DNA of 63,084 nt, filler included, from Octopus bimaculoides (GCF_001194135.2; 7 parts of 6 records of this genome joined end to end with filler, not necessarily neighbours in it); one strand, 5' to 3'; counted from the whole stretch's first letter, positions 1,351-62,988 are shown. The notes: generated from the sequence alone by a model not told the origin. Made by a program: numbers and translations.

Positions 1351-1390
1351 CTGGAAATCTTTTGTCACACATCTGTGACCTCTTCAGCAA
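1351..1390 (-). ncRNA. Decayed hammerhead motif, family B-like
   Basis: UUG-CUGAAGA-G-GUCACA(GAUG)UGUGAC-AAAA-GAUUUC-CAG. Stem II is the same as at 24185-24229, but GAAA is mutated to AAAA. Confidence 0.55.
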
Positions 1391-1789
1391 CCTTTTCCAT
1401 CCACATGTATCCCCCTGCTCTACTTAGTCTATTCTGTCCTTCTATGATATGTATCCTTATCTGTACATACATTTGCATCTTTCTGTGTGTGTGCGTGCAT
1501 GCATGTATGCATGCACATATGCGTGTCTGTGTGTGTGCATGCATGTACACATGTCTATGGGTTTCACATGTGTGCACACATGTGAAACACATAGGCACTC
1601 TACCCCAACAAACCAAACTACATCTTTCTCTCTTCACATTTCTTTTTCATGCACTTGGCTTATCTCTCAATCCCCAATCTTGTCCTCAAGGTTCTACTCC
1701 CCTCTATATACCCAGGTTTTTCACTTGAGGGTATGCCCTAGCACTTGCCACCACCTATCTCTCTTTTCCTTTACTTTATCATCTCGTTT

Positions 1790-1931
1790 ATACATTATTT
1801 ACATTCAACGGATATTTGTCCTCATCTTGTTTGTTGTTAACACAACGTTTCGGCTGATATACCCTCCAGCCTTCATTAGGTGTCTTGGGGAAATTTCGAA
1901 CCTGGGTTCTCATCCCTAATGTATTTTTCGA

Positions 1932-1975
<44 letters not shown>

Positions 1976-2045
1976 TCACTGCCTGGAATCATACTCGGAA
2001 TCTTGGAGTTAGTAGCCCATGCTCTTAACCACTATGCCATATGGA
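1790..2045 (-). mobile_element. tRNA-headed, HHR-carrying SINE-like element (family A), second copy
   Basis: Minus strand reads CATATGGCATAGTGGTTAAGAGC..GAGTATGATTCCAGG-(AAT)n-..AAGACACCTAATGAAGGCTGGAGGGTATATCAGCCGAAACGTTGTGTT, colinear with 22582-22925. Confidence 0.85.
1839..1884 (-). ncRNA. Hammerhead motif family A with G5A core substitution (probably inactive)
   Basis: GACAC-CUAAUGA-A-GGCUG..CAGCC-GAAAC-GUU-GUGUU. Confidence 0.75.
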
Positions 2046-2170
2046 GGGTATATCAGCCAAAACTTTGTGTTAACAACAAACAAGATGAGGACAAATATCT
2101 GTCAATTGTAAATAATGTAAATAATTCCTCATCTCTTAAATATAGAATTGTATCATCTCATTTATATTTT
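2041..2170 (+). repeat. Inverted partial copy of the family A 3' half
   Basis: TGGAGGGTATATCAGCCAAAACTTTGTGTTAACAACAAACAAGATGAGGACAAATATC matches the reverse complement of about 1810-1870. Confidence 0.85.
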
Positions 2171-2241
2171 GATCCTCATTCCTTGTGAATATGCCCCAGC
2201 ATCTATCTCCCACCTTCTCTTGTGCTCTTGTTGTCTCTCTG

Positions 2242-2312
<71 letters not shown>

Positions 2313-2599
2313 CTCTTCCCTCAGGCTGGATAGCCATGTATCTCCTATACAGCAGCACACTTGTTTCTTTCCTCGTTCTTGATCACCTGCTCTTACTCCT
2401 TTATCTGGTGGTCAGTATGGAAGCTAGGGTTAGATAACTGGTTGGTGAGGTTTGTCCAAGCCATGTCAATTAGATGCAAGTCAACAATGAATATAGCAAA
2501 GAATTTAATTTACAGGTAAGACTTCACCAAAGATCAGTTCTCAATTGCCTTATATTCATCACAGTTTTTCAAGCCATAACAGAGGAGTTTAAGATTGGT

Positions 2600-2659
2600 T
2601 ACTCATAGGAGCTTTTCTAGTGAGTGGACTTGGTAGACAGAAACTGAAAGAAGCCCATC

Positions 2660-2702
<43 letters not shown>

Positions 2703-2875
2703 TGTGTCTGTGTTTGTCCCCCACACTGACGTTGGTGTGTTTATGTCCCCATAACTTAGCAGTTCAGCAAAAAAGACTGATAGAATAAGTATTGAGCTTA
2801 CAAAGAATAAGTCCCAGAAGGTGGTGCTCCAGCATGGCTGCCGTCAAATGACTGAAACAAGTAAGATACAATAAT
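2600..2875 (+). mobile_element. SINE (local family S2), 5'-truncated
   Basis: GAGTGGA.TTGGTAGAC.GAAACTGAAAGAAGCCC-(TG)n-..CAGCATGGCTGC.GTCAAATGACTGAAACAAGTAA, shared with 4105-4495, 40925-41310 and 47163-47495. Confidence 0.85.
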
Positions 2876-3084
2876 GTTTTATGTTGGGAAAAGTTGTGAT
2901 ATAAGAATTTTCTTATAGATAAATAAATTTTATCATTCATTTCTCTTGTCATAACTTTATATACTCCTGATCTTTTTCACTTGTATTGTGCTGTATATTC
3001 TGTGTTTTGTAAAATGATACATTAAGGAGCTTTTTTTGTGAGTACCAGTGGATTAATTGAATCCATATATTGTGATTTAAATTC

Positions 3085-3426
3085 ATGTGGAAATTGCAGT
3101 TGTGATACTCATGCCGGTGGCACGTAAAAAGCATTATTCGAACGTGGCTGAAGCCAGCACTGCCTTGACTGACTTCCAAGCCGGTGGCACGTAAAAAGCA
3201 CCAACCAATCATGGCTGTTTCCAGCCTCCTCTGGCTCCCGTGCTGGTGGCACGTAAAAGCACCCACTATACTCTCAGAGTGGTAGGCTTTAGGAAGGGCA
3301 TCCAGCTGTAGAAACGCTGCCAGACCAGATTGGAGCCTGGGGCAGCCTCCTGGCTTCCCAGACACCAGTCAAACCGTCCAACCCATGCCAGCATGGAAAA
3401 CAGACGCTAAACGATGATGATGATAA

Positions 3427-3430
<4 letters not shown>
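3085..3430 (+). mobile_element. SINE-like repeat S3 with three internal GGTGGCACGTAAAA motifs
   Basis: Homologous to 1-270 and ends in (GAT)n followed by (AT)n. Confidence 0.8.
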
Positions 3431-3499
<69 letters not shown>

Positions 3500-59609: not shown

Positions 59610-59915
59610 TGCTCTTTTACTTGTTTCAGTCATTTGACTGCGGCTATGCTGGAGCACCACCTTTAGTCGAGCAAATCGAACCCAGGACATTGGGGGGACA
59701 AGCACAGACACACAAATACACACACACATATATATATACATATACATATATACAACAGGTTTCTTTCAGTTTCCATCTACCAAATCCACTCACAAGTCTT
59801 TGGTCGGCCTGATGCAAGTGTAGAAGACACTTGCCCAAGATGCAATGCAGTGGGACTGAACCCGGAACCATGTGGTTGGTAAGTAAGCTACTTACCACAC
59901 AGCCACTCCTGCGCC
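59610..59915 (-). mobile_element. SINE S2
   Basis: Reverse complement of the S2 head, core and tail. Confidence 0.85.
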
Positions 59916-61388
59916 TGTGCTTAAATAATTTTAAAAGATCAGCATTTCCAAAGTTAATCGTGATTTGATGGATGACCAGGAGTAATATCAAAAAGCAGAA
60001 GTGTTTAAACGCGAAATTATCCTTTTTATCTTAACATTTCATGGCAGCAAACGTTTGAGTAAACCATTTCTTGTGTAAGCCTGACTTTGTAGTAGATTTC
60101 TGTATAAAAACCAAATTAGATTTGACGTGACTGTTAATTACTCTTGAAATATCTGGATGATATACAAGAAATAGCTTACGTTTCATACCTTTAGCGAGTA
60201 TTTGTGAGATGATCTTTTACTGCTTTCTACAATTGTAACTTTTCCCGCTTCTTTTGAAATAAACAGTTTTAGGGAATAAACATGTCTAAAATAACTCTCA
60301 TTAAAAACTAAGATTTAGTAGATATTTACTGACTTCCGTTCAAATGTACTGAAAATTCTGATGTAGTCTGGATGTCAGCACTTGCGCACTCACCTGCTGT
60401 CTAAATACTACAGATATTTAGAAAAATTTTTCGAAACAACCTCGAGCCTCAACAAACGTTTGAGTGCTTTGCCCAGTTTCCTGATTTAAACGCTTTTTGC
60501 ATCATAATGACGTCGTAACATTATCATCCACAGAAACATTTAGTGACTTTTCTCATATTTTACTGTCTGTGCGTGTTTGTGTTGAAAACATTAGGCTTGC
60601 TTGAATTTTACATAGAAAATTTATTTTATCAGGCTGATACCATTATGATTTTTGAAATCGATAGTGCGAGTCATAGTCATTTCGTAACTGCAATCTTCTG
60701 TTTCTCCTCATTCTACTCTTTTTACAATTTTTTATTTTGTATTTAGCGATACTTCTTTACACTCGCATGACATGACCGGATCAAAGAGGTACTGAAACAA
60801 TTAAAAATTGCTGTTCTCTAAGAAATTATAAAATTGCCACACAAGTCGTGTGATGTTGGAGAGGCAAGCACTCCAAATCTCAAAACTGGGCCAACTATAA
60901 CCGAAAGTCAGCTTTTTCTTGTTTATTAATTAATTAATTTGTTTGTTTATTTATTTATTTATTTATTTATCGATTTGTTTAATTTTGTGCGTGCTAATAA
61001 AGCAACGATATGGTTCTTTATAAGTAGCGACAATGTTTTTGCTCCTTAATTCTGGCCGATAATTTCTTGCAAAATTACGCTACGCTATAACGAGGTTTCC
61101 TACTCAGAGGAAACGTAAAAGAAGATATATAAGTTTGAGCGCGCGAGCGCGCGCGTGCACATATGCGTATCCATGCAAAACACATACACACTTACACACT
61201 TAAACACATTTATGCATATAAATGCACATATATTCATACATATACAGGTGTGTGTGTGAGAGAGAGAGAAACAAAGAGAGAGAGAGTGAGAGTGAGAGAG
61301 AGCGTGCTCTTCATTATGCCCATGTTTATTTTGCATTGTTGCTGCAGCATGGCTGCAGTCCGGTAACTGAAACCACTAATGGAAGAAC

Positions 61389-61438
<50 letters not shown>

Positions 61439-61439
61439 C

Positions 61440-61478
<39 letters not shown>

Positions 61479-61479
61479 C

Positions 61480-61526
<47 letters not shown>

Positions 61527-61527
61527 C

Positions 61528-61566
<39 letters not shown>

Positions 61567-61682
61567 NNNNNNNNNNNNNNNNNNNNNNNNNNNNNNNNNN
61601 NNNNNNNNNNTTAATTAATTAANNNNNNNNNNNNNNNNNNNNNNNNNNNNNNNNNNNNNNNNNNNNCACACACACACACACA

Positions 61683-61731
<49 letters not shown>

Positions 61732-62451
61732 ATATGCGTCACTCAGTGAAGTTATAGCAACAGGAAGCTAGTCATGAAGCCTAAATTGTGCTTTGAATAG
61801 AGGTTTCAATACCTGTATTGAGTACGTTTTTAATCTGTTTAGATTTGTCACTGTTAAATTTGTCTTACGTTTAAAAATGAATAAGATTAATAAATGTGTT
61901 TTTCCTTTCATACCATTGTGCAATACTTTCCTCGGGAAATCGACAAAATTATCGACTTGTGCAGGGAAATAAAACTCCATATGTTTACCGCCATACGTTG
62001 AAGGCGTATTTCAACGTCTCAATCTCAAAGTCGTATGGTTTCCATTAAAGATTCTTGAAAAGGGATAAAGATTCATATAAAGGTAATGATTAGAATTTCA
62101 AAAGCGAATAACAGCATGGCACTGGTTCCTATCTTGCTTCTGTCCTCCCATATCATTGCATTTCTGCCTTTCTATAAGGGAAAGAAAAAAAATTGATAAA
62201 ACGAAATCAATTTATCTTTTGATAAACAGAAAACTATGATATTGGTATCATTATTCAAATAAAAAGGTATCGCTTCCTGTTTGTGTCAGTTTTTTGTACT
62301 TCACTCTATATAAATATACAAGGTACGTATGCAATTATGTATGTATGTATGTATGTATGTATGTATGTATGTATGTATGTATGTATGTATGTATGCACGT
62401 ATGTATGCATGTATGTATGTATGCATGCACATTTGTTTGTATGTACGTTTG

Positions 62452-62520
<69 letters not shown>

Positions 62521-62951
62521 TCATAATATATATATGTATATACATACAAACACATATACATACATAGAAATACACACACACACACATATATATACTAATA
62601 CACGTGCATCTGCATGTTTATATATACGTAGATATATCAGATAATTACGCATATTAACTCTGTGTGCATTTTCTATTTATATCACAGTCGCCCGACGAAC
62701 GAGAACGGGAAACTCTGAGTAGCAGTATTTTGTGATGTTTTTGCAGCTTTAATAATAATGAAAAAAAAAAAATAAGCACTTTACTCTACCTCCGGTATTC
62801 CAGTACTTTTCTTTTCCACCTTGTTTCGCATTTAGATGAATACTAACACACACACACATATATATATATATGATTGACCATTATTATGATTGACCGTTGA
62901 CTGAACAGTATTCAATTTTTTTTCTCCGTGTTTTCCTCCTTGTCTCCGTAT

Positions 62952-62988
62952 TCTTTCTGTTGAAGAGCGTAGCTCGAAACGTCAAAGA
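62952..62988 (+). ncRNA. Minimal hammerhead motif family C (A6U core variant), best-preserved copy
   Basis: UCUUU-CUGUUGA-A-GAGC(GUA)GCUC-GAAAC-GUC-AAAGA, with perfect 5-bp stem I, loopless ACGU stem III and GUC triplet. Confidence 0.7.

Follow-up and report, generated by a model that had tools for sequence, protein, structure and literature searches.

What repeats carry the hammerhead ribozymes scattered through this stretch of Octopus bimaculoides DNA (63,084 nt, gap filler included; hereafter the window), and could these ribozymes cut host transcripts? The first-pass annotation had listed about 12 motifs in seven families (A to G), at roughly one per 5 kb, and had proposed that they derive from Penelope-like elements (PLEs), form a diverse and under-annotated repeat class and might cleave the transcripts in which they lie.

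Motif census and core state

All 13 coordinates listed earlier correspond to a hammerhead motif or to a homologous remnant of one, but the type-I core (CUGANGA, GAAA, UH) is intact in only five (A1, B1, B2, F and G). Five others carry a single core change (A2 G5A, B3 G12A, C1 A6U, D1 G12A, E U4A), C2 and C3 combine at least two core changes with a broken stem II and are recognised only through homology to C1, and D2 is a 3′ hammerhead half interrupted by an N gap. The density of one per 5 kb thus holds for motifs and remnants together (14 in 58,757 non-N bases), whereas intact cores occur at about one per 12 kb; five intact cores per 59 kb would extrapolate to ~2 × 10^5 per 2.7 Gb.

Motifs far exceed their incidence in dinucleotide-shuffled sequence. 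A strict type-I descriptor recovered four intact-core motifs (22828+, 24223−, 40463− and 56133−) whereas 455 local dinucleotide shuffles gave a mean of 0.007 and never more than 1. Tolerating a single core change raised the yield to eight (mean 0.18, maximum 2 in shuffles), comprising seven previously noted sites and a new one at 27935+ (site H). A relaxed descriptor gave 39 matches, 14 of them scoring at least 6 compared to 0.26 expected (216 shuffles, maximum 4), although this score was devised after the motifs had been seen and is biased in their favour. Ten of the 13 previously noted sites, H and three weak candidates (15773+, 40595− and 6817+) make up the 14; the weak candidates, which are relaxed matches only and have chance-like scores, were dropped from the count. 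Together with C2, C3, E and F, which pass relaxed criteria or homology only, they are what could be said for chance matching in AT-rich, microsatellite-rich DNA. The shuffles refute that explanation for the set, and the families recur with conserved flanks, so that we give it a negligible probability. The hammerhead motifs in the window are real as a set.

The motifs share a layout, as had been claimed for them. Among 11 parsed motifs (10 noted sites plus H), all have an extra nucleotide after A9, 10 have a G10.1-C11.1 pair (D1 has C-G), and eight have a fully self-complementary stem III, which is imperfect in B1, B2 and F; in F, stem I is also only 2 bp. Predicted stem III self-duplexes are stable in D, E and H (−11 to −13 kcal/mol); for A, B, C and G the values are marginal, from +1.6 to −1.7 kcal/mol. 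The canonical dimer ribozyme fold was not obtained by free cofolding. In predictions that fold each motif with 25 nt of context, only A1, B1 and B2 have well-populated stems I and II (pairing probability in A1 of 0.92 for stem II and 0.77 for stem I). Stem I differs between B1 and B3 by compensatory changes.

Penelope-like remnants and the ends of families B to H

One motif of the 14 is physically joined to a PLE coding remnant. On the minus strand, a decayed, internally deleted and 5′-truncated ORF (24661..25679) retains reverse transcriptase (RT), thumb, Cys linker and the start of a GIY-YIG domain, and is Neptune/Nematis-like. It was identified by tblastn with P0003 (E 1e-18 to 1e-32), an octopus homolog that has DKS, YVDD, CX4CXXC and a GIY-YIG-like motif; in two other homologs, P0015 and P0026, the GIY-YIG match lies under the Pfam cutoff. 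About 440 nt 3′ of this remnant and on the same strand lies B1 (24080..24230), a PLE 3′ end with an intact-core hammerhead (24187-24226) that terminates at (TA)n. The element is 5′-truncated. An upstream RT and GIY-YIG ORF on the same strand was found for family B alone, through B1, with none seen for A or C to H. The other family B members are B2 (55984..56191, minus strand), a solo 3′ end flanked by two (TA)n runs with an intact-core hammerhead at 56097-56136, and B3 (1351..1390, minus strand), a distant subfamily hammerhead. A second PLE remnant (34317..34909, plus strand) encodes an RT thumb, resembles Hydra-1_Obim by eye and has its 3′ end inside an N gap. The proposed PLE origin is therefore upheld by the position of B1 downstream of an RT/endonuclease remnant and by layouts that match published PLE hammerheads; families C to H probably share this origin.

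Family C comprises C1 (62952..62988), C2 (46328..46370; A6U, U16.1C and a broken 10.1-11.1 pair), whose element terminates at (TA)n, and the heavily decayed C3 (18542..18585), all on the plus strand. D1 (27315..27379, minus strand) is of Hydra type, with an unpaired base on each side of stem II and an 8-nt palindromic stem III, and D2 (26449..26759, minus strand; hammerhead half at 26711-26759) is an element 3′ end at (TA)n. The two form a 220-nt duplication, 97.7% identical, flanking a single gap; since duplications of 100% identity also flank two others of the 25 gaps, D1 and D2 may be one locus assembled twice. Another D-family 3′ end (52744..52956, plus strand) has no hammerhead and terminates at (TA)n. 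E (21020..21058, plus strand) and the added site H (27931..28003, plus strand; C3U, Hydra-type) each have a 10-nt palindromic stem III, G (40431..40466, minus strand) has a (TA)n run 115 nt downstream, and F (53559..53635, minus strand) combines a long stem II with a weak stem I and a weak stem III. We did not connect F to a zinc-knuckle ORF at 54623-55351, as an N gap separates them and the ORF resembles a LINE ORF1.

Several families thus terminate in (TA)n, and 6 of 12 sites (family A not among them) have a TA-type microsatellite in the 300 nt downstream, compared post hoc to 23% of positions drawn at random (p 0.04), with no TA run within 1 kb downstream of A1, A2, B3 or H. A repeat search of the window was dominated by microsatellites. 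Inverted truncated partners occur at 1793-2150 (A2/A3) and 52744-52956 (D family).

Overall, the motifs are minimal type-I hammerheads that very probably represent the 3′ pseudo-LTR (pLTR) ends of several PLE families, left mostly as short, 5′-truncated and decaying insertions. We infer that a PLE RT/GIY-YIG protein would nick AT-rich DNA, often (TA)n, that reverse transcription would start close to the 3′ terminus of the element's transcript, and that copying would mostly halt early and sometimes leave an inverted partner, with a tail on one side. Early stopping would over-represent the last 100-300 nt, hammerhead included. The tiny or palindromic stem III may form only between two ribozymes, as in tandem pLTRs, or with protein help, in which case a ribozyme on its own should show hardly any activity; most solo copies have since lost core bases. 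Both the integration steps and the dimer dependence in this scheme are presumptive.

The architecture of family A

Family A joins a tRNA-like head to a hammerhead. The A1 element (22582..22923, plus strand) consists of a head (22582-22656), an (AAT)n/(AAC)n run, a body, a minimal hammerhead (22823..22868, plus strand; core intact, stem III palindromic with zero loop, cleavage predicted after 22863) and a 3′ end without a tail. It lies in a Tigger-like DNA transposon, has 72 nt duplicated on both sides of a 10-N gap, and showed no target duplication when its flanks were searched. A2 (1793..2043, minus strand; hammerhead 1839-1884) extends from the tRNA-like head through the 3′ end and is paired with A3 (2042..2150, plus strand), an inverted 5′-truncated partner that begins within stem II. 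Within this pair the ~26-nt family A tail is present on A3 (~2125-2150) but not on A2, and the A3 tail is the commonest loose end among RNA reads. A2 and A3 together are enclosed by a 16-bp target-site duplication (1777..1792 and 2151..2166, plus strand; 15/16 identical); among 1000 random flank pairs, 2 reach 16.

The head carries A and B boxes and is tRNA-related. It matches the Rfam tRNA model over positions 8-63 at 12.1 bits (gathering score 29), and three of its six weak blastn matches in phages are tRNAs; ARAGORN made no tRNA call on it. It seems likely that family A is a PLE-mobilised SINE composed of a tRNA-like A/B-box head, a hammerhead and an optional 3′ tail, in which case it would be a non-autonomous, tRNA-promoter-driven passenger of PLE machinery. 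The fuller proposal, that it is a ~10^5-copy tRNA-promoter SINE moved by Penelope-like rather than LINE machinery and keeping the PLE hammerhead and tail as a recognition end, strikes us as evenly poised.

Alternatively, an autonomous PLE could once have picked up a fragment of a tRNA-derived SINE; family A would then be the 3′ UTR of that PLE, and the head a passenger. Only two headed copies were seen, read depth just upstream of the hammerhead is about one fifth of that on it (reads being truncated at the repeat), so that the majority of copies could be headless, and the (AAT)n run after the head resembles a SINE tail. However, both long copies begin at predicted tRNA positions +1 to +4, which would be rare under random truncation of a longer RNA, and the head is confined in the window to family A. 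A T4 run is also absent from the sense strand of A1, A2 and A3 and present in all eight other segments, a weak criterion given that 23% of random 260-mers lack one too. We consider the captured-fragment account possible but rather doubtful. The SINE interpretation, if confirmed, would make family A a PLE-dependent SINE and provide a 280-nt natural substrate defining what the PLE enzyme needs. This architecture, with a truncated copy in inverted orientation and a 16-bp target duplication around the pair, is the new detail in the window, although the family may already be named in the repeat literature, where Ohshima and Okada (1994) treat octopus tRNA-derived SINEs. Two scans of metagenome contigs with exact family A patterns gave no match.

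Copy number, RNA and relation to known systems

Summed read depth suggests ~10^5 copies of family A and ~10^4 of family B, which are rough values, contig depth not being copy number. Depth was high for both in another organism too, which means that the window is not exceptional; the expectation of genome-wide, high-copy families is borne out in this way for A and B only. As expected from 5′ truncation, the coding-remnant bins have depths of 4,910 to 255,028, and the 3′ end of B, at 0.7-1.07 million, exceeds them 3- to 200-fold.

Sequences of A and B are present in RNA within unrelated flanks, and in Xenopus both introns and exons are depleted of retrozymes; with the extrapolated number of intact cores, this could point to ribozymes of relevance to the host, which in sense orientation would cut introns or UTRs and so shape transcripts. 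Yet no host exon was found in the window: Pfam searches of 152 reading frames (17 + 135; frames below 62 aa or of low complexity mostly excluded) matched transposon-type domains only, and thus located no host gene. Eight of the 13 sites are mutated or incomplete, read ends do not pile up at the A1 or B1 cleavage sites (a weak test, ordinary RNA-seq being fragmented), and the A:B ratio in RNA (~6) tracks that in DNA (~9), as in passive read-through. Solo minimal PLE hammerheads are reported to be inactive as monomers in vitro, and no cleavage-site reads were found for an anole PLE. The RNA reads of A and B are mostly read-through from other copies, the suggestion that host transcripts are cut finds no support here, and we regard it as unlikely. 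Among the sequencing runs listed as containing the sequence, none was recorded as RNA, which has no bearing on expression. Still less probable is that the motifs belong to tandem non-LTR retrozymes producing circular RNAs. Retrozymes have been argued to derive from PLE pLTRs, and D1/D2 could be a tandem pair ~600 nt apart. However, this sole candidate pair is core-mutated, gapped and perhaps an assembly duplication, no tandem units each with a complete hammerhead were found in the window, all other copies are dispersed monomers with minimal rather than canonical motifs, and, in ordinary RNA-seq, none of the 15 listed joints of A and B (155 further ones exist) is of the go-back (circular) kind.

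The preferred reading, PLE 3′ ends, places the motifs in a known class. That this class is under-annotated stands insofar as Rfam misses it, with no hammerhead among 150 listed of 194 window matches (mostly microsatellites matching miRNA models) or on the intact A1 and B1 stretches, and A and B are high-copy. On the other hand, most copies are core-mutated, and earlier work has described the class, O. bimaculoides included. Lunse et al. 2017 (RNA Biol 14:1499) may already count octopus motifs. The association of minimal hammerheads with PLEs is already known, and our main observation is a 2014 result repeated in a new genome, ordinary in kind. The word “ribozyme” is absent from the main text of a curated Octopus vulgaris repeat paper (2026), and the Rfam failures are relevant to annotation. 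Under the fuller proposal for family A, and with the other families counted, few known genomes would be as dense in hammerheads as that of the octopus (intact cores of order 10^5). Should these rough counts prove right, strand and core-state tests of selection against solo PLE hammerheads in introns could draw on ~10^5 natural copies, both intact and mutated.

The published PLE minimal hammerheads (Cervera and de la Peña) share with those of the window the type I form, the base between 9 and 10.1, the G10.1-C11.1 pair, a stem III that is palindromic (15.2-16.2) or missing, numerous families within one genome, and mostly solo copies of truncated PLEs with some close opposite-strand pairs. Genomes called remarkable in that survey have ~4,000 and ~9,000 motifs, compared to our rough 10^4-10^5 per family; octopus is not among the genomes in two of its three supplement files. 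Hydra-clade PLE hammerheads, including Hydra-1_oBim of O. bimaculoides (Craig et al. 2021, PMC8557442, File S2), likewise lie ~100 nt from the 3′ end; they have (TA)n targets, as the window families may. D, E and H share their 3-4-bp palindromic stem III, and D and H also the unpaired base that they often have before G12, E being alike in stem III only. Six 11-12-nt window motifs did not occur in that supplement, where line breaks may hide matches, which suggests that the window families differ from those of Craig et al. The coding remnant, a deleted and frameshifted copy, may belong with the Neptune/Nematis-type EN+ PLEs. A2/A3 match the hallmark of EN+ PLEs, an inverted 5′-truncated partner with a 30-40-bp tail at one end, apart from a tail of ~26 nt, and the D-family end at 52744-52956 has an inverted partner. 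Animal non-LTR retrozymes (Cervera and de la Peña 2020, PMC7229834; Li et al. 2026 preprint) are similarly non-autonomous, with a type-I hammerhead and a proposed PLE origin and mobilisation, but are defined by tandem units with at least two complete hammerheads and by circular RNA, whereas the window copies are dispersed. Finally, the SINE-like hammerhead retroposons SMalpha/Sjalpha of schistosomes (summarised in PMC6765202 and PMC8490949) resemble family A in placing a type-I hammerhead after a Pol III-type promoter and in lacking an ORF; SMalpha is described as tandem and self-cleaving, whereas family A is dispersed, with a zero-loop minimal hammerhead and PLE-type marks in its optional tail and inverted truncated partner.

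Hammerhead motifs against shuffled background

The first-pass annotation described about 12 hammerhead motifs in seven families (A to G), and as a set these stand well above shuffled sequence. With a strict type-I descriptor, the window holds four motifs with intact cores and eight with at most one core change, versus 0.007 and 0.18 per shuffle, respectively (455 local dinucleotide shuffles). A relaxed scan gave 39 matches, 14 of them with a score of at least 6 versus 0.26 expected (216 shuffles), on a score devised after the motifs had been seen. These 14 comprise 10 of the 13 earlier sites, a new site H (27935, plus strand) and three weak candidates, which we left out of the motif count. 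The quality of the motifs is lower than first described: the core is intact in five of 13 sites (A1, 22823; B1, 24185; B2, 56095; G, 40431; F, 53556) and carries one change in five others, C2 (46328) and C3 (18542) are decayed hammerheads, and D2 (26711) is a half motif that stops at an N gap. Because a 220-nt duplication (97.7% identity) places D1 (27315) and D2 on either side of that gap, and exact duplications surround 10-N gaps at 22627-22780 and 56744-56907, a pattern of assembly artefacts, D1 and D2 may be one locus. The window hammerheads are absent among the Rfam matches listed.

A weak hammerhead-like motif at 40561-40599 (minus strand), on the same strand as G and 130 nt upstream of it, could be its dimer partner, if real. 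Two more weak hammerhead-like matches of the relaxed scan lie at 15767-15820 and 6813-6882 (both plus strand).

The window has 34% G+C, 4,327 N spread over 25 gaps, and plentiful microsatellites. Its seven protein matches with a name all belong to Octopus, and we accordingly treat it as octopus DNA. Its coding remnants are of transposon type: two LINEs (RT and endonuclease domains), a Tc5/DDE transposon, a zinc-knuckle ORF and two fragments of Penelope-like elements (PLEs); in another 135 frames, Pfam turned up no domain of a host gene. The decayed LINE with RT at 8543-10945 (plus strand) is presumably R4/Dong-like, and we take that at 28646-31718 (plus strand; endonuclease and RT) to be RTE-like. 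The 243-aa zinc-knuckle frame (54623-55351, minus strand; Pfam E 0.003), upstream of hammerhead F with an N gap between, resembles, we assume, a LINE ORF1. A PLE RT-thumb remnant (34317-34909, plus strand) has as its sole named homolog P0001, “myb-like protein I” of Octopus sinensis, a label that is likely a mis-annotation. A 130-aa frame (52223-52612, plus strand), in which Pfam places a SAP domain below threshold (E 4e-4), adjoins an inverted end of family D and is probably a transposon remnant. The region 12900-15500, with few repeats and non-coding, gave no hit in the domain search and could represent a promoter or a conserved non-coding sequence. The tract 19700-20600 looks like a degenerate minisatellite and has a 21-nt repeat around 20381-20509.

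Layout and link to Penelope-like elements

The proposed derivation of the motifs from PLEs is supported by an ORF remnant, by motif layout and by element ends. Octopus protein P0003, which carries DKS, YVDD, CX4CXXC and a GIY-YIG-like motif, matches four blocks over 25679-24661 (tblastn, minus strand, E 1e-18 to 1e-32); of 11 proteins scanned, two unnamed homologs show a GIY-YIG match below threshold. The B1 hammerhead lies ~440 nt downstream of this remnant on the same strand, its element ends in (TA)n, and B2 is a B1-type 3' end standing alone. Stem I of B3 (1351) shows compensatory changes relative to B1. TA-type microsatellites occur within 300 nt downstream of 6 of 12 sites, versus a rate of 23% for randomly placed positions (post hoc p 0.04; left out were C1, where the window ends, and D1, a possible duplicate). 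Inverted truncated partners, a structure described for PLEs (Craig et al., PMC8557442), are present at 1793-2150 and 52744-52956. A putative PLE origin of families C to H is supported by their layout and ends, with no ORF attached. A single (TA)n run (52957-52984) is reached from one side by a D-family end and probably from the opposite side by the F element, and a fourth C-like 3' end (42340-42411, minus strand), with no recognisable hammerhead, has a microsatellite at its end.

An unpaired base follows A9 in each of the 11 motifs parsed, with G10.1-C11.1 in 10 of them and a perfectly self-complementary stem III in eight. Cervera and de la Pena (PMC4209133) list these traits for the minimal hammerheads that metazoan PLEs carry. 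According to that report, these form many families per genome, mostly as solo copies, with ~9,000 motifs in Xenopus and ~4,000 in coelacanth; when tested, dimers were weakly active and the monomer inactive. Two kinds can be told apart in the window. Stem III has 2-3 bp and a marginal predicted self-duplex energy in A, B, C and G, and is a palindrome of 8-10 nt (predicted -11 to -13 kcal/mol) in D, E (21019) and H; Craig et al. (PMC8557442) tabulate similar hammerheads from the Hydra clade. Their table includes Hydra-1_oBim of O. bimaculoides (hammerhead at position 2403 of 2507, (TA)n targets), and therefore an octopus PLE hammerhead was already published.

Abundance, transcripts and the nature of family A

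Four runs were mapped to 22712-25670, a stretch in which A1 and B1 are the only hammerheads. Three contigs without differences from DNA run X1 had depths of 49-56. Depth summed to 5.95 million across the bin with the A hammerhead (ratio ~1.1x10^5) and to 0.70-1.07 million across the end of B (1.3-2.0x10^4); these sums are not copy numbers, and overlapping short contigs may inflate them several-fold. Run X14, from a second organism (run kind not recorded), gave similar summed depths. Scaled to the 2.7-Gb genome size of O. bimaculoides (PMC6962438), three A copies in 58.8 kb correspond to 1.4x10^5 (95% 0.3-4x10^5) and five intact cores to 2.3x10^5 (0.7-5x10^5). Given the depth ratios and this extrapolation, A and B, the only families measured, are thus spread across the genome at an order of 10^4-10^5; for these two, the X1 and X14 depths speak against the window being an outlier.

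Two RNA runs of one study (~6% of each read) gave 8,905 and 7,184 reads on the same stretch. Just 34 and 39 of them reached 99% similarity or more, and 78% and 81% continued into unlike sequence. Coverage was equal on both strands, in a library that may be unstranded, and the A:B ratio was ~6 in RNA versus ~9 in DNA. These reads fit read-through of other copies within host transcripts. The suggested cutting of such transcripts is unsupported: among the read ends listed for both RNA runs, there was no pile-up at the predicted cleavage sites 22863 (A1) and 24190 (B1), a weak test. This agrees with the anole PLE hammerhead, reported as protein-assisted, dispensable for in vitro insertion and without cleavage-site reads (Frangieh et al., PMC11167929). 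An opposite-strand joint in family A (22872/22901; 66 and 44 RNA reads), absent among the DNA-contig joints listed, would come either from an inverted, transcribed copy at another locus or from template switching.

The long copies of family A, A1 (22582-22923, plus strand) and A2 (1793-2043, minus strand), run in the order head, (AAT)n, ~70 nt, hammerhead and ~55 nt. Both heads align in register with positions 8-63 of the Rfam tRNA model, at 12.1 bits and so short of the gathering score, and both copies start within ~4 nt of tRNA position 1; ARAGORN called no tRNA. The A1 head is the sole A-box/B-box pattern match in the window, the A2 head aligns to it with a changed B box, and no T4 run occurs on the family A sense strand. 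A3 (2042-2150, plus strand), a 5'-truncated copy, abuts A2 head to head and is the only one with a tail (~26 nt); among RNA reads, no other loose end at the 3' boundary is as frequent as this same tail (1,134 and 961 reads). Since a 16-bp duplication (15/16 identical; matched by 2 of 1,000 random flank pairs) flanks A2 and A3, they are likely one insertion. At A1, where no target duplication was found, the element interrupts a Tigger-like DNA transposon (22134-23360, minus strand), and the sequence between two coding blocks, presumably ~500 nt by transposase length, is lost.

Our reading of family A is a Pol III-driven, non-autonomous element that PLE enzymes would move and that would propagate as uncleaved RNA, because cleavage would separate head from tail; we put the odds of such a PLE-dependent SINE at about even. 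That family A is instead the 3' UTR of a PLE which captured the head of a SINE seems less likely, and would be in line with only two heads having been seen among the copies and with a depth upstream of the A hammerhead of about one-fifth of the hammerhead depth.

Comparison with known systems

In the literature searched, with most subscription papers outside the search, we found no paper on octopus hammerhead density and, with Repbase also outside it, no description of a PLE-mobilised tRNA SINE. The giant squid paper lists 235 Rfam hammerhead-1 matches, and a repeat study of O. vulgaris describes recently active Penelope families, with ribozymes unmentioned in its main text (PMC13282606). Family A resembles the schistosome SMalpha element, in which a promoter precedes the hammerhead (PMC6765202, PMC8490949). 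Unlike non-LTR retrozymes, which are described as tandem (PMC7229834; Li et al. preprint 10.64898/2026.07.22.740005), the window set works like the minimal hammerhead class of PLEs and shows its testable features.
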